DNA from: a virus
Lineage: Duplodnaviria > Heunggongvirae > Uroviricota > Caudoviricetes
Length of the DNA stretch: 14,300 nt
Virus record (IMG/VR): IMGVR_UViG_2579778919_000011
Reading direction: 5' to 3' (one strand)
Part shown: positions 4,321-14,300 of the stretch, one piece after another
How positions within the stretch are numbered: position 1 is the first letter of the stretch
Layout of the letters: each line of letters begins with the position of its first letter
Position numbers and translations under genes: made by a program
Notes under the pieces: model-generated
What the model saw: the letters and a program-made list of their open reading frames with translations, nothing else
Told to the model about the DNA's origin: nothing
Database searches by the model: none

Positions 4321-4671
4321 TCACGGCACAGACGAGTACCAGTAAAAGCCTGTTAGCCCGGCATCGCAGCGCTCACGATTAAGCACGCGTGGCGGTTGCT
4401 CTCTGGTCATCAACTCCAGCGAAGCATTACCTCCCTGCGTCTCCAGGCGGTATTGCCTGTCGGTAGTGGTGATGGCATCAGGCAATAACTTTATGGCGGC
4501 CTGGCTAAAGTCTCGCGGCGCGCCGTAAAATTGCGCATCAATAATATGAACCACATCGCCGTTAATCGTTGTCCGATAACGATCTGGCTGTATTGTAAAG
4601 CCCCCACAATGGATAGCAGATAGTGCCGGTGCAGAGGAGATCAGGCAGGCTGCCAGAATGTATTGCTTCAT
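4321..4671 (-). CDS. Small exported protein (116 aa) with N-terminal signal peptide
   Basis: ATG at 4669-4671 overlaps the upstream stop (ATGA). The N-terminus MKQYILAACLISSAPALSA is n-region plus hydrophobic core plus AxA-like cleavage site. No family recognised. Confidence 0.6.
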   Translation of the reverse strand: MKQYILAACLISSAPALSAIHCGGFTIQPDRYRTTINGDVVHIIDAQFYGAPRDFSQAAIKLLPDAITTTDRQYRLETQGGNASLELMTREQPPRVLNRERCDAGLTGFYWYSSVP

Positions 4672-5309
4672 TCTTCACCCACCAATTCATCCAGTTCAGC
4701 CAGCGTCAGAGGCTTTGGTACAGGCTTGTCGATATCGCCCATAATGCGCTGGAAGTTTCTGGCGGGCATATGGTTACGGTTCTCCAGTATTTTCGCCAGC
4801 GCGATAACATCCCACCATTTCAGGGTAATCAGCGCCTGAGCGCGGGAAAGGGATATTCGCTGTATATCGGCGTCCTCCCCACCAGCTACCCGGTATACCT
4901 CGGATAAATCACGAACATTTTTCATATCTGCTTTCCCGGACGTTTCCATCAGTGCGTCAATATCATCCTCCGTATAGCGTGATTGCGCGACGATACCAGC
5001 CAGAGAGCTAACCATAGCCCGGCATACTTGGTCTATCAGACGTAATCTGGCGTCATCGTTCGAGAGGGTGTAAGACTTAACCTCAGCCACATTCCGTGGA
5101 TAGTTGGCGTGCCATACCGCGACGGCTCCACACTCATCAACATCGCCGCCAAGGTAGGTTTTTGCCACTCGGTTATTACCCGATAATGCAATTTCTACCC
5201 CCTGTATGCCGAAAAACCATGCGGCTATCGCATGACCTGCTTCGTGTATTGCGAGATGTCTGGGCCAGCGATAGCTGCCTAACTCGATAATGGTGGGTTG
5301 TGTACTCAT
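4668..5309 (-). CDS. HEAGH zinc metallopeptidase-like protein (FtsH/M41-like motif, no AAA+ module)
   Basis: The ATG at 5307-5309 (MSTQPT...) is preceded by AGAGGGAAGA and sits 10 nt after the SSB stop. The ORF-track start at 5366 would overlap SSB by 47 nt. The protein contains LAIHEAGHAIAAW, resembling the FtsH zinc-binding HEAGHA motif. Confidence 0.7.
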   Translation of the reverse strand: MSTQPTIIELGSYRWPRHLAIHEAGHAIAAWFFGIQGVEIALSGNNRVAKTYLGGDVDECGAVAVWHANYPRNVAEVKSYTLSNDDARLRLIDQVCRAMVSSLAGIVAQSRYTEDDIDALMETSGKADMKNVRDLSEVYRVAGGEDADIQRISLSRAQALITLKWWDVIALAKILENRNHMPARNFQRIMGDIDKPVPKPLTLAELDELVGEE

Positions 5310-5319
5310 ATCTTCCCTC

Positions 5320-5781
5320 TCAGAATGGATCTTCATCATCAAACGGCGGGCGCTGGTCAAAATCATCAGGGGTGTTATATAGCTCCCATCCCGGCGCGGG
5401 TTGCGTGGTATGGCCCCTGCTGGCTTCGCTTGCTTTGACTGACTCGGCCCGCTTCCCGCCGGGGCGTACCGTTCTGGCGCTGATCACGCTGTCGGCTACT
5501 ACCTGATACCCCTGCTGTGTACCGCCATCCTTGCCCGTCCACTGATTGACCTGCATCGCTCCGGCAACACTGACTAAATCGCCTTTAACGTGTCCTGCCA
5601 GTGCGTCGGCCTGTTTGCCGAATGCCACCACGCCCAGCCAGAAAGTAACCTCTCCGCCCTCTGCTGCATGGCAGGGCAGTGCCACCGCTAACCGTCCCAT
5701 TGCCATGCTTGTACCGCTTGCTGTGGTGCGGGTCTGGGGATCTGCCACCAGCCGCCCGTATGCTGATATCTGTGCTGTCAT
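5320..5781 (-). CDS. ssb: Single-stranded DNA-binding protein (153 aa)
   Basis: OB-fold-like pattern TFWLGVVAFGKQADALAGHVKGD...W...YQVV, and an acidic C-terminal tail ...PPFDDEDPF resembling the SSB DDDIPF tail. Its start overlaps the upstream stop (TAATG). Confidence 0.85.
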   Translation of the reverse strand: MTAQISAYGRLVADPQTRTTASGTSMAMGRLAVALPCHAAEGGEVTFWLGVVAFGKQADALAGHVKGDLVSVAGAMQVNQWTGKDGGTQQGYQVVADSVISARTVRPGGKRAESVKASEASRGHTTQPAPGWELYNTPDDFDQRPPFDDEDPF

Positions 5782-5966
5782 TAAGCGCCCTCCATTCTTG
5801 ATAACGTGTTGTCAATATTCCCGGCGGCTCGTTTCAGGTAGTCCATGCTGTCATTTAGCCGGGATAATTCGCCAGCCAGTAACAAGGCCGCCGCCTCCTG
5901 CGCGGTGAACCCCTGCGCTTCAATCTCTCTAATAACTTCGATCTGCTTTTTATGATGTTCGTTCAT
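5781..5966 (-). CDS. Hypothetical small protein (61 aa), first gene of the SSB operon
   Basis: The ATG at 5964-5966 (MNEHHKKQIEVIR...) has AAGGG 7 nt upstream. The ORF-track start at 5990 has a G-run directly abutting the ATG, which is poor spacing. Confidence 0.5.
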   Translation of the reverse strand: MNEHHKKQIEVIREIEAQGFTAQEAAALLLAGELSRLNDSMDYLKRAAGNIDNTLSRMEGA

Positions 5967-6019
5967 TTTTTCGCCCTTTAGCTGAATCATACCCCCCCCT
6001 GTAAATCTTTTTTGGGGTG

Positions 6020-6275
6020 TAATATCCCTACCAAACCCTACTAATCGATGAAACCCAGATATGGCGCGGCTTTCAGGCTAGTAGGGAATTGTTTTTCTTA
6101 CCCTACATAACCCTACTTATCCCTACTAAATCACTTCAACGGCATTTTACTGCCTGTTTTATTTGGTAGGGATATGTAGGGATAAGTAGGGATAAGTATA
6201 TATATCCCTACCAGTCTACAAACCCCGTCATTACTGGCCTTAAATGACTTTGTAGGGATAGGTAGGGATAAATCA
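6020..6275. repeat. Iteron array; putative island origin of replication
   Basis: Five direct GTAGGGATA copies at 6166, 6176, 6186, 6252 and 6262, the first three and last two at exact 10-bp spacing. Three inverted TATCCCTAC copies at 6023, 6118 and 6203, plus partial copies (CCCTAC at 6101 and 6111, GTAGGGAA at 6081). An AT-rich GTATATATAT lies at 6196-6205. The array is immediately 3' of the primase-helicase gene. Confidence 0.75.
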
Positions 6276-6283
6276 GGGGTAAA

Positions 6284-8728
6284 CTATTCTTCGCCCCCTT
6301 CGGCGGTGCTGCTGCCATATGCTCGCGGTATAAACTCCTCAGCCATCTCGTTATAGCCCACGTTGGTTTGCGCTCTGCCGTTAATGCTTCGCGTCAGGTA
6401 GCTGGCTCGGTACTCTTTTGCTGCTGATTTTATGGCGCGTGAAAACTTATTGACGGAAAGCGGTTTACCCAGCCCGTGATACTCCATAAACGCCAGGTAA
6501 AGATGATAAAGATACGCCCTCGGCTCTGGCTGGCCTGCCCATGTACCTCCGCCCATCATCATGCCTTTGGGTTCGTTCATGAAAAAAAGTGCCGCACACA
6601 TATCGATAACCGGATCTGTGCCGCGTTTAACGTCTAGCGCCTCCTGAGAATCGCGCTGCTCAAGTAACAGTGCCTTTGCTTTGTTCTGGTCGGAAAAGGT
6701 GGTTAGCAGGTGGCGGATAATCACCGGGATTTCTCGCCTGATTTTTGCGGTTAAATCCGGGTCTTTGTCTGCGTCTGATACCGGGTTATTAAACGGGAAT
6801 ATCACGCGGCGGCGGGCAATGCCCCCGTTTCGCTCCGTGAATGTCATCGGCTCGTTATTGGTTGCCATAACAACGGCATTTATCACGGTTGTGAACTGCT
6901 TTTCATATTTCCCATCAATCTCTACCGGATCGCCGCCCGTAATGGCTTTAATCCCCGCACCCTCTCCAACGTAGCGGGTCTGGTCAGGCATAATAATCAG
7001 GCTTTTCCCTACGAACTGCGCCCGTCCCCGTGCGGTGTCCAGCGTCATCATGCTACCGCTGGCGGTGTTGTGTTCACCTGCCAGCGTGGTTGCTATGCTG
7101 CTGAATACGGATTTCCCACTGCCGCCCTCGCCAGTTATCTCAATGAATAGCTGCCAGTCGTGACGCTTCGCCAGCACCATAAACAAGGCTGCTTTGATAC
7201 GCTCGGCCTTATGATGGTCGCCAGCCGTTGCATGATTCAGCCAACGGGTAAAATTGGGGGCGCTGGTGGAAATATTCTCCCCCGGCGCTGGCGGGGTGTA
7301 GGTGATCCCATTGTGGTTCATCAGCCAGTTACCCGGCGAATGGGCGGAAAACGTCTGCGTAGCGAGGTCATAAACGCCGTTATCAAAACCAATCAGATCC
7401 CCGCTCCGCTCACCAATTACCGGTATTTGCAGCTTCATGGTTGCGACAACCGATTTAATCCCTTTTTCGGTGTAGTGGGCTTCGTGCTCGTCGAAAATTG
7501 CCACCATAACCCTTTCTAATTCGCTGTCTGGTAGCTTCACCCATACGCCAGATTCGTAGCAGTAAACAGCGCCACTATCAGGGTTGACCGCCAACATATC
7601 CCAGCGAGATGAAAGCAACCGCGCTTTCTGGCTGGCTGCCATTTGTGCAATATCTCCGACTTCGGCTTTACGGCGGGATTTACCGCCCACAATGGCCTGT
7701 AGTTGTGGTTTCACGGCTTCCCCCTGAATCTGGTACATCGAATCGTTAAACGCAGCCGTAGCGACTTCCAGCCCGTTTTGCTGGCGGTAGTCGTCCCAGT
7801 CGGCTTTGTAGTCTGTCGGCGGCAGCGCCACCCAGCCAGCCACGGATAAGGCGGCTTTCTCTGCGGCCTCCCTGCCTGTATTGGCTTCTCCGTTTTGGTG
7901 GTGGTCGTTGTCTGCGGCGATAATAATTTGCGCCTTCGGGTGTTTCCGGCGCATTACTCCGGCAACGGGTAGCAGGTTGCCCGCGTCAATTGCTGCCACT
8001 GCCAGCGCGTCCGGGCGCATCAGGTGAACTGACAGAGCGGTAGCCAGCCCCTCGGCAATCACGACGCTTTGAGGCCGTTCCAGCGCGTTTACGGCGTAAT
8101 ATGCCCCGCGCTTTGCTGAACCTGTCAGAAGTCGCTTTTCTCCCTGCGGGGTGATGGTCTGCGCGGCTGTGACTGCGCCGGATTCATCCACCAGCTCCAG
8201 CAATAACGAACCATCGGGCATTAGCGGGTAATTGAACCCGGTCAGCCCTTTTGATTGCAGGTAATCAGATTCGCCCTGTGTGACGTTCTGGCGCATTCCG
8301 GCATACAGACGGGTAAACGTTGCCCTTCGCTGCTCTGCGTCCTCTGCTGCCTGTTGCTGGCGCTCCTGCTCACGCTGCTGGCGGTCAGCCTCCAGTTGCT
8401 CCCTTCTCTGGCTCGCTGCCGTCTGGTCGGTTTGTGCTGCCCGGTAATCAATACCCAGCACATCAGCGGCAAGGTGCGCCGCCTCCGTGGTGTCGCAGTT
8501 GTTAACCCGCTTGATTAAATCCAGCCCGTCGCCCGCGCCGCACTGATTGCAGATAAAGCTGCCGCGCCCGTTGTCGTCGAACCGGAAGCGATCCGTACCG
8601 CCACATGCAGGGCAGGGGGCATGGCGGCGTGATGAATCAGGCACGTCGATAGACAGGCCAGCCAGCACATAAGGCCAGTTACCAGCGGCGGCGGTGGTCA
8701 CTTCGCGGATAAAGTCGATATTACGCAT
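6284..8728 (-). CDS. Primase-helicase (P4 alpha-like / Pri-Rep), 814 aa
   Basis: N-terminal zinc ribbon CPACGG...CNQCG; Toprim-like motifs VVIAEGLATALS and IIIAADNDHH; Walker A GEGGSGKS in the C-terminal NTPase domain. GAGGGAG lies 7 nt upstream of the ATG at 8726-8728. Confidence 0.9.
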   Translation of the reverse strand: MRNIDFIREVTTAAAGNWPYVLAGLSIDVPDSSRRHAPCPACGGTDRFRFDDNGRGSFICNQCGAGDGLDLIKRVNNCDTTEAAHLAADVLGIDYRAAQTDQTAASQRREQLEADRQQREQERQQQAAEDAEQRRATFTRLYAGMRQNVTQGESDYLQSKGLTGFNYPLMPDGSLLLELVDESGAVTAAQTITPQGEKRLLTGSAKRGAYYAVNALERPQSVVIAEGLATALSVHLMRPDALAVAAIDAGNLLPVAGVMRRKHPKAQIIIAADNDHHQNGEANTGREAAEKAALSVAGWVALPPTDYKADWDDYRQQNGLEVATAAFNDSMYQIQGEAVKPQLQAIVGGKSRRKAEVGDIAQMAASQKARLLSSRWDMLAVNPDSGAVYCYESGVWVKLPDSELERVMVAIFDEHEAHYTEKGIKSVVATMKLQIPVIGERSGDLIGFDNGVYDLATQTFSAHSPGNWLMNHNGITYTPPAPGENISTSAPNFTRWLNHATAGDHHKAERIKAALFMVLAKRHDWQLFIEITGEGGSGKSVFSSIATTLAGEHNTASGSMMTLDTARGRAQFVGKSLIIMPDQTRYVGEGAGIKAITGGDPVEIDGKYEKQFTTVINAVVMATNNEPMTFTERNGGIARRRVIFPFNNPVSDADKDPDLTAKIRREIPVIIRHLLTTFSDQNKAKALLLEQRDSQEALDVKRGTDPVIDMCAALFFMNEPKGMMMGGGTWAGQPEPRAYLYHLYLAFMEYHGLGKPLSVNKFSRAIKSAAKEYRASYLTRSINGRAQTNVGYNEMAEEFIPRAYGSSTAEGGEE

Positions 8729-9331: not shown

Positions 9332-9549
9332 GACTTGCCCTCCCGATATTCACGCATCACATAGTCAGCTAGCTTGCTTTCGGCTTCTTCCATTGCCTCC
9401 GGGACGCCATGCAGCAAAGTGAGGATTGAACCGATAAGACGCGGAAGGTCGGGGCTAGTGTCTTTGGTGGTGCTCTCCAGCCACATGGATAAAACAGCCT
9501 GTGCCTGTTCAATCTGACAGGTGGCATCAATCAGTTGTAACTGGCTCAT
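9328..9549 (-). CDS. Hypothetical small protein (73 aa)
   Basis: ATG at 9547-9549 overlaps the stop of the Icd-like ORF (ATGA). Translationally coupled position within the operon. Confidence 0.55.
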   Translation of the reverse strand: MSQLQLIDATCQIEQAQAVLSMWLESTTKDTSPDLPRLIGSILTLLHGVPEAMEEAESKLADYVMREYREGKS

Positions 9550-9734
9550 GCTGCCACCTCCAGACGGATACGGCCTGCAAAGAAACAGACGTGATCCCGC
9601 GCCAGCGTGCGGCGAGCTTCGCGCTCAGTTTCAGCAGCAATGTGATGGATTTTGGCGGTAATTGTCGGCATATCGCGGCGAACTGCTGCGATAATCCAGA
9701 TAAATTGCGGTTTTTGGGTAGGGGTAGTAGCCAT
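9546..9734 (-). CDS. Icd-like small protein (62 aa; host cell division inhibitor-like)
   Basis: The ATG at 9732-9734 is preceded by AGGAGG at 7-nt spacing. The sequence MATTPTQKPQFIWIIAAVRR...EREARRTLARDHVCFFAGRIRLE fits my recollection of Icd-like proteins in P4-type islands. The 249-aa ORF in the track is an upstream read-through of this gene. Confidence 0.6.
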   Translation of the reverse strand: MATTPTQKPQFIWIIAAVRRDMPTITAKIHHIAAETEREARRTLARDHVCFFAGRIRLEVAA

Positions 9735-9761
9735 TATGGCAGCCTCCTTTGTGTTTAAGGA

Positions 9762-9800
9762 GTCACCGCCTGATGTGCAAATATCATGATTGGCGGTGAC
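9762..9800 (-). promoter_or_regulatory. Perfect 9-bp inverted repeat GTCACCGCC-N21-GGCGGTGAC upstream of the Icd-like gene
   Basis: Arms at 9762-9770 and 9792-9800. The spacer contains the palindrome ATCATGAT. It lies 28 nt upstream of the Icd-like start and could be an operator or an RNA stem-loop in the 5' leader. Confidence 0.4.
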
Positions 9801-9923
9801 GTTAGCAGGGTTTGCACTACCGGACACAAAGGAAACCGGCCTACGCGAACGTAGCCCCACTAACGCCACCATTGATACAGTACGGGTAAGTCCGCTGATT
9901 TGATGTGCGTAGTGAATGGACAC

Positions 9924-9946
9924 AAAAAAAGACGCTTTCGGCGTCT
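9924..9946 (-). terminator. Rho-independent terminator (minus strand)
   Basis: Minus strand reads A-GACGC-CGAAA-GCGTC-TTTTTTT: a GC-rich 5-6 bp stem, 5-nt loop and a T7 tract. It is in the non-coding region between the 60-aa ORF and the Icd-like gene. Confidence 0.5.
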
Positions 9947-10005
9947 GTGTCGCCCTTAGTGTGTTCGGGGTGCAAATCCCGGTTGCTGATTTTGCAGCAA
10001 CGCTT
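9924..10005 (-). ncRNA. Candidate small structured RNA ending at the terminator (possible C4/CI-like immunity RNA)
   Basis: Between a weak TATAGT-like -10 (around 10010-10016 on the minus strand) and the terminator, the minus strand can form three hairpins: GTTGCTG-N6-CAGCAAC (9982-10001), CGGG-N8-CCCG (about 9966-9981) and the terminator stem. The predicted length of about 80 nt and the position upstream of an icd-like gene match the P1 c4 / P4 CI arrangement. Inference only. Confidence 0.25.
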
Positions 10006-10233
10006 GGACTATAACAGCTTTTCTCTGCTAGGTGGTCATACCAGATAAAACCGTAACCCTTTAAGAGTTTTTCCTGTGCACGGCTCACCATCTTTTTGTT
10101 GAGGGTAAGCGCCTCGCGTACTGGTAACGGAACTCCGGGCGCTGCGGTATCAATATCAGGTTTTGTAAGGTTGCAGATGTCAACTTTTGACAACATGCCA
10201 GCCAGATTAAAGGCTTCTTTCTGGGCGGCAGGT

Positions 10234-10416
10234 TCATTCAGTATCACGGCGCACCTCCACGAACTCATTAACGAATCTCTCCAAAGGCTGAACACATGGC
10301 GACTGATAGCCCTCGCGGTAAAAGGTCACTCGGTTATGCTCGACGCGCTGTACGGTCACTACAGCCCCGTGCGAATCCTTGTAACGGCTTCCCGGCATCG
10401 GATTGTGGTTACGCAT
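10234..10416 (-). CDS. Hypothetical small protein (60 aa)
   Basis: The ATG at 10414-10416 has GGAGG at 6-nt spacing, embedded in the 3' end of the antirepressor gene (8-nt overlap). Sequence MRNHNPMPGSRYKDSHGAVVTVQRVEHNRVTFYREGY.... Confidence 0.6.
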   Translation of the reverse strand: MRNHNPMPGSRYKDSHGAVVTVQRVEHNRVTFYREGYQSPCVQPLERFVNEFVEVRRDTE

Positions 10417-11254: not shown

Positions 11255-11689
11255 TTAGGCGGCGGTGAGATTGTCCGGGTATAGGTTGAGAATGTCGGCA
11301 ATTTCAGGCTGAGAAAGTCCCTGATAGCCGCCAGCGTCGGCGTTATGGTTCACAAGCCGAATAACTTTTAGAACGTCACCGCGCCCGGTAAAGCGATAGC
11401 GTAAATGTGACCCTATCCCGTCGGGGTTCTTTTCGTCTATACGCTCAAGCTGAATATCAAGCCTGCGCTCTAACTCGCTGGCGTAGTTCCTTCCAGATGA
11501 AAGGCGGCAATATCGCAGAATGTCGTTTTCTGTCCATCCCTCTACGCCAGTACGCAGCATATAGACGCGGGCGCGGTGTTTCTTTGGGGTTCGCTTAGGT
11601 ACTTGTACCGGGCTGGTGGTCGGCGTAATATCAGACGTGCGAATATCTGAGTTAGCCGCCTGCTGTACGGGGCGGTTTTTCTTTTTCAT
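11255..11689 (-). CDS. Hypothetical protein (144 aa), basic N-terminus
   Basis: ATG at 11687-11689 overlaps the alpA stop (TAATG). Lys/Arg/Pro-rich N-terminal region; no family recognised. Confidence 0.65.
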   Translation of the reverse strand: MKKKNRPVQQAANSDIRTSDITPTTSPVQVPKRTPKKHRARVYMLRTGVEGWTENDILRYCRLSSGRNYASELERRLDIQLERIDEKNPDGIGSHLRYRFTGRGDVLKVIRLVNHNADAGGYQGLSQPEIADILNLYPDNLTAA

Positions 11690-11892
11690 TACGCCACCTT
11701 TCCCCGGCGCTCCGCCAGCCAGTTGTGAATATCAGCCGCATCAAAGGCGGTAATCTTCTCGCCCAGCTTTACCGGACGTGGTAGTGAACCGTTTCTTACT
11801 TTACGGTCGATGGTGGATACACTAACGCCCAGCAATTCAGCCAGGCGAAAGCGTCTGATATAGCCTTTTGTAGGGATAGTGTCGATGTTCAT
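11689..11892 (-). CDS. alpA: AlpA-family phage transcriptional regulator (67 aa)
   Basis: RFRLAELLGVSVSTIDRKVRNGSLPRPVKLGEKITAFDAADIHNWL matches the AlpA/excisionase-like helix-turn-helix pattern. It sits in the typical position near the integrase. Confidence 0.85.
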   Translation of the reverse strand: MNIDTIPTKGYIRRFRLAELLGVSVSTIDRKVRNGSLPRPVKLGEKITAFDAADIHNWLAERRGKVA

Positions 11893-12940: not shown

Positions 12941-13040
12941 GCTGTGCCTTAAAGAGTGATTGAGCCAGGCGGTAAGGCTTCCCGCTTTTCGCCCCGTCGG
13001 GCTAGGCTCAATCTGTCCTCTGATTCTTTACATATCTTGG

Positions 13041-14300
13041 TTACTTCGCCTTTCTCAGCGGTGTAACGTTGTATTCTTCGCCGCGTTCCAGTGCCACCAG
13101 CAAGCCCGCCCACTGTGTTAACGCAGCCCGGCGTTCATCAAAGTATTGGTGGCGGTTATAGATACCCTCCACGCCTTTAATTTTGTGGTTAAGGCATCTT
13201 TCTGCGACTACCGGATCAACGCCCAGCGCGGCTAAATGGGTGCGGGCCGTGCGCCGGAAGTCGTGAATGGTGAAGTTCGGCACGTCCGGCATTTCAGCGC
13301 GAACCTTCGCCAGCGCAACGGGCAGGGTGCTTTCCTGAATATGGGGGATCATGCGGTTTTGCATCTTTCTGGCTGGCAGTACCCATGCGCTGTTGCATGA
13401 GAACGTTTTAAGCTCTCTCAGCCATTCGACGGCTGGCGGTGCTAATGGGATGTCTATAGCGTCGCCGTTTTTGCTGCGTTCCTCTGGCAAGCGCCATACG
13501 GCTTTATCAAAATCGAACTCCTCCCAGCGGGCGGCGCATAACTCCATTTTGCGGACGCATAACGCTAACAGTAATTTGAACGTGATTTCGTTCTGGCGAC
13601 TGAATCCCTTAGCCGTGCGCATGGCTTTGAATAGCTGGATTAACTCATCGCGGGTTAACCAGCGGTCACGGGCAACTTCTTTCCCTCCGGCGTCTGCCAC
13701 CTCAAAGGCTGAACATGGGTTAATCTCCAGCGCGTGCCGTTTGATTCCGTAGTCGAATATGCGGCGCGTCCATCTCAGCACGTCCGTTGCTATGGTCGGC
13801 GCTCCACGGTCAACAATACCTTTCAGCATGTCATCGATATGGCGCGGTTTCACGTCCTCTACCTTCATGCTGCCAATGCAGGGGTTTATATCTTTGTCGA
13901 TACGGCGGCGGAGTATATCGGGGTGCTTCCAGCGCGGGAGGATCTGACGCTCAAAGTATTCAGCGGCAAGCTCTGAAACGCGCATGGCGTTCTTCTCTGC
14001 TTCCATCTTCGCCAGTGCTTCGGCTTTCCGTTCCTGCTTCTCTCCCGCGACGTCATAACCCAGCGCAACACGCGCCGATAGCTCTTTGGCTGTCTCTCTG
14101 GCCTTTGATAGTGATAGCTCGGCATATGAGCCAATCAGCATGGCGCGGGGTTTCCCTGCGAATTTATAGCGGAATCGCCAGACGGGGGTCTGGTAGTTTT
14201 CGCGGTATGAAAGATAAAGCCCGTTACCGTCAGAGCGTCCCTCGAATCGCTCCCCGGCCTTTATCCATGCGCGGATCTGCATGTCTGTGAGTTTTGGCAT
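13041..14300 (-). CDS. int: Tyrosine recombinase / integrase, P4-family (419 aa)
   Basis: The N-terminus MPKLTDMQIRAWIKAGERF...DGNGLYL resembles the arm-binding domain of P4-type integrases. C-terminal catalytic residues are present: HDFRRTARTH (HxxR) and GIYNRHQY (catalytic Tyr). The ATG is the last three bases of the window, so the promoter is outside it. Confidence 0.9.
   Translation of the reverse strand: MPKLTDMQIRAWIKAGERFEGRSDGNGLYLSYRENYQTPVWRFRYKFAGKPRAMLIGSYAELSLSKARETAKELSARVALGYDVAGEKQERKAEALAKMEAEKNAMRVSELAAEYFERQILPRWKHPDILRRRIDKDINPCIGSMKVEDVKPRHIDDMLKGIVDRGAPTIATDVLRWTRRIFDYGIKRHALEINPCSAFEVADAGGKEVARDRWLTRDELIQLFKAMRTAKGFSRQNEITFKLLLALCVRKMELCAARWEEFDFDKAVWRLPEERSKNGDAIDIPLAPPAVEWLRELKTFSCNSAWVLPARKMQNRMIPHIQESTLPVALAKVRAEMPDVPNFTIHDFRRTARTHLAALGVDPVVAERCLNHKIKGVEGIYNRHQYFDERRAALTQWAGLLVALERGEEYNVTPLRKAK

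Follow-up and report, generated by a model that had tools for sequence, protein, structure and literature searches.

The alpha protein of P4 is a three-part initiator: its C-terminal domain binds iterons, its central domain is a 3'-5' helicase and its N-terminal domain primes. Replication of P4 is reportedly independent of DnaA, DnaB, DnaC and DnaG (Ziegelin et al. 1993). The SaPI initiator is a self-loading SF3 helicase, and the origin of SaPIbov1 is reported to lie directly past rep, with an AT-richer region between two groups of short iterons (Ubeda et al. 2007; summarised in PMC6092414). SF3 helicases with an origin-binding domain of their own are also found in SV40 (large T antigen) and papillomavirus (E1), where inverted sites are arranged around a centre; iteron plasmids carry 17-22-bp direct iterons, a WH1-WH2 Rep initiator and DnaA boxes in the origin. 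In the P4 record (GenBank X51522), crr is located directly downstream of the alpha gene, and a separate ori of six type 1 repeats is annotated about 4.8 kb from there. For EcCICFT073, a plasmid containing pri and the ori region persisted at the restrictive temperature, and its maintenance suffered when either pri or ori was deleted (PMC6092414). The same study, the original paper on Gram-negative phage-inducible chromosomal islands (PICIs), described the PICI origin layout as shared with no other known bacterial replicon (PMC6092414).

We analysed a 14,300-nt stretch of Caudoviricetes DNA (IMG/VR record IMGVR_UViG_2579778919_000011; hereafter the window), in which a repeat array directly downstream of a primase-helicase gene had been predicted to be a satellite replication origin bound by the adjacent protein. 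Our analysis makes it highly likely that region 5992-6283 is the vegetative replication origin of an EcCI-type PICI, at which the primase-helicase encoded by the island binds the GTAGGG(ATA) sites through its C-terminal domain. Homology of that domain to the P4 alpha structure 1KA8, covariation of iteron and domain across 56 loci and the layouts of the EcCICFT073 and P4 origins all support the predicted origin function; the type of element requires correction from a P4-like satellite to an EcCI-type PICI. Origins of this kind are already known from E. coli islands and P4, and the repeat sequence appears to be new relative to the types compared here.

Iteron array and its dyad symmetry

The array fills the 293-bp gap between the primase-helicase stop codon (6284-6286, minus strand) and the next ORF, which encodes 69 aa (5781-5990, minus strand, start at 5990). 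The distance from the end of the final iteron to the primase stop codon is 13 bp, and no ORF of at least 40 aa was found over the array. Twelve sites with a GTAGGG core are present in about 250 bp (6023-6270), and eight of them are full GTAGGGATA. Exact sequence search returned the five direct and three inverted copies counted in the original prediction, the former on the plus strand at 6166, 6176, 6186, 6252 and 6262 and the latter on the minus strand at 6023-6031, 6118-6126 and 6203-6211. The partial copies said to lie nearby are also real, being four degenerate sites that retain the GTAGGG core, at 6036-6041 (minus), 6081-6086 (plus), 6101-6106 (minus) and 6111-6116 (minus). With up to one mismatch to the 9-mer GTAGGGATA, the whole window contains 12 matches versus 1.7 expected, a number reached in none of 200 shuffles. 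Outside 6023-6270, only four isolated GTAGGG hexamers occur and no second cluster is found in the 14.3 kb. The sole full 9-mer GTAGGGATA outside the array (11870-11878, plus strand) falls within the first part of the alpA ORF; the corresponding sequence is GTAGGAATA in the related locus L001, and the 9-mer is not conserved in L002 either, and we rejected it as a second cis site, the match being probably due to chance.

The 12 sites form two six-site modules, each composed of a triple, a single inverted site and a pair, which are placed head-to-head about position 6146. Numbered by their cores, the sites run from a pair at 6026 and 6036 (minus) through a single at 6081 (plus) and a triple at 6101, 6111 and 6121 (minus) to the centre, and then from a triple at 6166, 6176 and 6186 (plus) through a single at 6206 (minus) to a pair at 6252 and 6262 (plus). 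This near-perfect dyad symmetry includes all 12 sites and was absent from the original prediction. In the distal half, the outer pair (6023-6041, minus) reads GTAGGGATA and GTAGGGTTT, the single inverted iteron (6081-6089, plus) reads GTAGGGAAT, and the inner triple (6098-6126, minus) reads GTAGGGTAA, GTAGGGTTA and GTAGGGATA. In the primase-nearest half, every site is an exact GTAGGGATA: the inner triple (6166-6194, plus) with its three copies 10 bp apart, the single inverted iteron (6203-6211, minus) and the outer pair (6252-6270, plus) with copies at 6252 and 6262. A repeat finder detected arms of 77 nt at 6055-6131 and 6161-6237 that are 71% complementary, and the array as single-stranded DNA is predicted to form a single long hairpin (-51.1 kcal/mol, z = -7.2).

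Inside the blocks, each of the six site-to-site intervals measures exactly 10 bp, i.e., the blocks are tandem 10-bp units. The strict helical phasing that had been proposed is not conserved, as the interval in relatives varies from 8 to 11 bp.

The central spacer at the dyad axis (6127-6165) is 67% AT, compared with 48% for the window, and six sites flank it on each side. This moderately AT-enriched spacer, which varies in sequence and length in relatives (25-75 bp), may be where DNA melts and the helicase enters. The array lacks a long AT-rich tract that would mark a melting site, which counts against the origin model. A short AT tract in the primase-nearest half (6195-6202, 88% AT) has a mirror counterpart at 6090-6100 (82% AT), both located between the triple and the inverted single, and relatives have short AT tracts at the equivalent place. 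The former is part of GTATATATAT, the alternating AT stretch that had been noted between iteron blocks and is indeed present at 6196-6205. The segment 6185-6205, which holds GTATATATAT, is the third least stable 20-mer of the window. The assignment of GTATATATAT as a DNA-unwinding element is tentative because the tract is only 8-10 bp long and lies within one half-array. The outer spacers of the window array are 51-58% AT, whereas the primase-proximal outer spacer of P4-type and CFT073-type origins is 75-90% AT; the window has no such tract.

An Rfam scan of the array region gave no RNA family match, and a DNA search of the origin against a phage collection gave no match either. Literature searches with GTAGGGATA and TGTTCACC, the P4 type I iteron, returned unrelated primer matches only, and a P4/crr search of the literature returned none.

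Primase-helicase, binding domain and repeat classes

The putative initiator gene (6284-8728, minus strand) encodes an 814-aa primase-helicase with Pfam matches to Zn_Ribbon_Prim, Toprim_3, D5_N, DUF5906 and Pox_D5: a primase zinc ribbon and a Toprim domain are followed by D5_N and an SF3 helicase core (DUF5906), and Pox_D5 lies at the C-terminus. Aligned over 97% of its length, the protein has 38.5% identity to P4 alpha. Its helicase domain matches the solved primase chain 7OLA (E = 2.7e-11), which we take to be a SaPI5 protein. Residues 704-795 (coding region 6344-6619, minus strand) are homologous to PDB 1KA8, the origin-binding domain of P4 alpha (phmmer E = 4.9e-8), the structure of which was reportedly determined by Yeo and colleagues in 2002. 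From this homology, we infer that residues 704-795 read the iterons.

Origin-like DNA was found in 78 of 5426 complete E. coli genomes and was chromosomal in every case. Among the listed E. coli matches, the partial ones that cover the array only (H4-H30) have no annotated feature beneath them, and the fuller ones reach into the flanking primase and hypothetical-protein genes. Some E. coli genomes (matches H5 and H18) show similarity at four places, consistent with a pair of GTAGGG-class islands. Two islands were examined in full; in both, the array is located between a P4-family primase gene and a small ORF, which is followed by SSB. Repeats lying inside a conserved coding sequence of homologues, which would have contradicted an origin, were looked for, and the homologue repeats are intergenic. 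The comparison across related islands that had been suggested along with the prediction revealed that the sites persist while the spacers diverge and that the repeat sequence tracks the binding domain.

A scan of species-representative genomes for the primase identified 79 loci, 55 of which have a readable primase ORF and at least 350 bp downstream. Many of these 55 loci have a 2-1-3/3-1-2 layout that begins 17-40 bp past the stop codon, with differing repeat sequences. A GTAGGG class is found in Kluyvera, Atlantibacter, Buttiauxella and Aeromonas allosaccharophila; a GGTAGA class in Rosenbergiella, Yersinia pekkanenii, Tolumonas and Aeromonas molluscorum; and a GGTGAACA-type class in Rahnella, Tatumella, Erwinia, Serratia, Zobellella, Yersinia, Proteus, Xenorhabdus and Photorhabdus. 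The GGTGAACA type is the P4 type I repeat on the opposite strand. The Y. pekkanenii genome contains two islands (L021 and L038), with iterons of the GGTAGA and CTGAACA classes. Two further loci on contigs labelled Chryseobacterium sp. 18061 (L009 and L061) are islands of enterobacterial type whose primases are about 82% identical to the window protein; this assembly is probably contaminated or mislabelled.

To class the loci, the last 115 residues of the primase were assigned as closer to the window protein or to P4, and three site types were counted in the 330 bp downstream (56 loci). All 13 loci that combine a window-like domain with an array have 7-12 sites of the GTAGGG or GGTAGA type, and none has more than one P4-type site. 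A P4-like domain is present in 41 loci; in 40 of them, P4-type sites number 3-12 and there is no more than one GTAG-type site. No array was found within 330 bp past the primase gene in L049 (Xenorhabdus budapestensis, P4-like domain, no site of either type) or in L008 (Serratia fonticola, window-like domain), two exceptions that count against the model; their origin, if any, must be elsewhere or made of an unrecognised repeat.

The primase and helicase domains do not predict the repeat sequence. L007 is 70% identical to the window protein in the primase domain, 68% in the helicase and 33% in the binding domain, and L046 is 66%, 79% and 34% identical, respectively; the iteron in both is GGTGAACA. 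L040 has only 35% identity in the primase and 56% in the helicase domain versus 62% in the binding domain, and its iteron is GTAGGG. In L006 (55%, 79% and 81%, respectively), the iteron is GGTAGAGATA, which occupies 11 of 11 aligned sites and reflects a concerted G-to-A change at conserved positions. The 1KA8-like domain begins at about residue 700, and it is here that sliding-window identity to relatives with P4-type iterons drops, from 70-97% to 17-47%. Because the repeat class tracks the binding domain, identity breaks at about residue 700 and the L006 change is concerted, the binding domain and the repeats appear to be inherited and exchanged together. This covariation is the strongest computational evidence that the domain reads the repeats. 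On inspection, no one position of the binding-domain alignment cleanly accounts for GGG versus GA(N).

Two conserved elements other than iterons were identified. The boundary motif AAAGATTTACAGGGGGGGG at the distal array edge (5992-6010, minus strand) is present in 39 of the 55 related loci versus 0.2 expected. It abuts the next ORF start and has a fixed distance from the primase stop in every iteron class, and a weaker mirror copy is found at 6271-6283. We rejected its reading as a plain ribosome-binding site; in the Xenorhabdus loci, no ORF start is apparent directly after it by inspection. The second element is a palindrome of the outer spacers, which reads AAACCCC-N-GGCCTT on the primase-nearest side (6220-6241) and AAACCCAGATATGGCGCGGCTTT at 6051-6073, the latter being nearly identical in EcCICFT073 despite different iterons. 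Palindromes of the class AAASCC-N10-14-GGSTTT occur in outer spacers at 22 of the 55 related loci versus 0.4 expected. Because neither the boundary motif nor the palindrome varies with the binding domain, a host factor or a conserved region of the initiator may recognise them. The presence of two conserved non-iteron elements means that the origin model is incomplete.

Island type and relation to P4 and the EcCI islands

The window spans the island from int to dinD. All genes are on the minus strand, in the order integrase (int, 13041-14300), 317-aa ORF, AlpA (11689-11892), AntA, DUF4222, Ash/Icd-like protein, small ORFs and primase, followed by the array, the 69-aa ORF, SSB and further ORFs. 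The right end of the island is marked by the host genes dinD (Bro-N domain, 910-1746) and yicG (glycine-transporter family, 1-672), both on the minus strand. The SSB gene (5320-5781, minus strand; Pfam SSB, E = 1.1e-14) is two ORFs downstream of the origin, an order unchanged in L001, L002, EcCIRM13514 and EcCICFT073, and the island SSB is likely an accessory replication factor. Pfam and PHROGs searches gave no function for the ORFs downstream of the origin; among them, a 232-aa ORF (4668-5366, minus strand) contains a HEAGH motif (HExxH, metalloprotease-like) and has no Pfam or PHROG match.

RNA families were found elsewhere on the minus strand of the island. An int-alpA RNA (RF02996, 64.9 bits) is located at 12946-13012, between the integrase gene and the 317-aa ORF. 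At 9789-10014, matches at the Rfam gathering level comprise C4 antisense RNA (9789-9876), isrK (9925-10001) and the c4 a1/b1 target (9962-10014), and all three overlie the Ash/Icd-like ORF (9546-10295). The 9789-10014 region is a P1/P7/P4-style c4-icd immunity module within the island.

Integrase, alpA and pri-rep are arranged in this order and in one transcription direction at a PICI-specific chromosomal site. The site is yicC-dinD, as for the published EcCIRM13514, which is listed there in Table S1 of Fillol-Salom et al. 2018 (PMC6092414); the att repeats published for it were not found in the window. Nine unassigned ORFs searched against Pfam and PHROGs gave no match to sid, delta or psu, and two of them matched only PHROGs of unknown function; P2 cos is absent from the window at up to three mismatches. 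Because sid, delta, psu and P2 cos, all of which P4 carries, are missing from the island, the element is classed by its gene content as an EcCI-type PICI and not as a P4-like satellite. As in other EcCI islands, the putative origin lies past the initiator gene and has two iteron sets flanking an AT-richer region, in the layout of the experimentally tested EcCICFT073 origin.

The likeness to P4 concerns the replication module. P4 has an initiator of equal three-part architecture with a homologous C-terminal winged-helix origin-binding domain, and a cis replication site (crr) directly downstream of the initiator gene. P4 ori consists of six short iterons in the same order of three, one inverted and two, at offsets of 0, 10, 21, 43, 86 and 96 bp; those of each window half-array are nearly identical (0, 10, 20, 40, 85/86 and 95/96 bp). 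By this comparison, the window array is two P4-ori-like modules placed head-to-head where P4 has crr, and the P4 crr repeats each resemble a reduced version of the six-site module. The two systems differ in that ori and crr are split about 4.8 kb apart in P4, whereas the window has one compound palindromic site. They also differ in the iteron, as had been suspected from the sequence alone: the P4 repeat is TGTTCACC, and the window sites are GTAGGG(ATA), with zero sites of the P4 type.

EcCICFT073 and EcCIRM13514 both have the 2-1-3/3-1-2 dyad layout just past the primase gene, within an int-alpA-...-primase-ori-SSB island of one transcription direction. The sites are GGTGAACA in EcCIRM13514 and GGTAGA(C/T)A in EcCICFT073, in contrast to GTAGGGATA in the window. 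EcCICFT073 further shares with the window a spacer element, CTGAAAGCCGCGCCAT..CTGG, and a boundary motif with A/T followed by a G run, and over the helicase and binding domains its Pri-Rep and the window protein share 55% identity. The N-terminal domain of Pri-Rep is shorter and different, while that of the window protein is a P4-type zinc ribbon plus Toprim. In addition, the primase-nearest outer spacer of EcCICFT073 is strongly AT-rich, whereas both outer spacers of the window carry a GC-containing palindrome.

Proposed initiation and alternative functions of the array

In the mechanism that we propose, the C-terminal winged-helix domain of the island primase-helicase would bind the GTAGGG(ATA) sites, and each six-site module would assemble one SF3-type helicase hexamer, its six sites possibly matching the six subunits. 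Two outward-facing hexamers would then be loaded at the dyad, around the AT-richer centre. The primase domain would prime, and replication would be bidirectional and proceed without DnaA. We know of no demonstration of double-hexamer assembly for P4 or PICI proteins. SV40 and papillomavirus offer an analogy of mechanism only, with no homology of the binding domain or the sites. SaPIs differ from the window island in host lineage, binding domain and iterons, with no detectable DNA homology.

No DnaA box at up to one mismatch was found in 5990-6283, and no IHF site in the origin region, an absence that fits a P4-like self-sufficient initiator. TTATCCCTA was considered as a DnaA box and rejected, as two core bases are missing. 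An origin of the iteron-plasmid kind (RepA, pi or TrfA type) was also rejected, the units being 9-10 bp long and in both orientations and no Rep_3-type protein being present.

The array could instead be a crr-like cis-acting enhancer of replication, with DNA synthesis starting elsewhere in the island. The P4 map gives this reading its appeal, in that the region directly downstream of alpha is annotated as crr, a helper rather than a start site, with ori about 4.8 kb away. The island, however, offers no second site cluster for such a start, the 9-mer at 11870 being conserved in neither L001 nor L002, and the half-arrays have the six-site layout of P4 ori and not the reduced layout of the crr repeats. 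Moreover, pri and the adjacent region of EcCICFT073 sufficed for plasmid maintenance (PMC6092414). We consider an enhancer-only function improbable.

A mainly transcriptional role, in which the repeats act as an operator or roadblock and initiator binding controls read-through into the operon of the 69-aa ORF and SSB, would suit an array that lies between co-directional genes with its boundary motif abutting the next ORF start. A promoter and terminator scan of 5700-6500 found none; in the absence of terminator- or promoter-like sites in the array, transcripts probably cross it. An operator explains neither the six-plus-six dyad geometry in common with P4 ori nor the replication phenotype of the homologous EcCICFT073 region, and as the main function it seems very improbable; it could coexist with origin function as a secondary role. 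That this 250-bp, long and imperfect palindrome of short repeats serves packaging (cos/pac) or partition, or is a small inverted-repeat mobile element with no tie to the primase, is extremely unlikely. Where present, the array adjoins the end of the primase gene, and its repeats covary with the C-terminal domain of the primase. There is no P2/P4 cos similarity, and the only lambda cosN-like matches are weak and outside the array; no par genes exist among the island genes, and the window holds no further copy of the array.

Beyond the origin function, a more speculative extension can be considered, which we regard as possible though doubtful. The six-plus-six palindrome would be the undivided ancestral form of P4 ori plus crr, with one hexamer per module, swapped domain-iteron cassettes and new cis elements. 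If so, cassette exchange would give orthogonal satellite replicons of the GTAGGG, GGTAGA and GGTGAACA classes, and the boundary motif and palindrome would be undescribed cis elements, e.g., a primer start or a helicase entry site.

The current picture of satellite replication is unchanged by these results. For a group of enterobacterial satellite islands, they pair the probable origin with the domain predicted to bind it, and they link the PICI origin layout to P4 ori. They also provide a natural specificity series, in which GTAGGGATA and GGTAGAGATA are one base apart and the corresponding binding domains are about 80% identical; this pairing could help to map how a winged-helix origin binder reads DNA.
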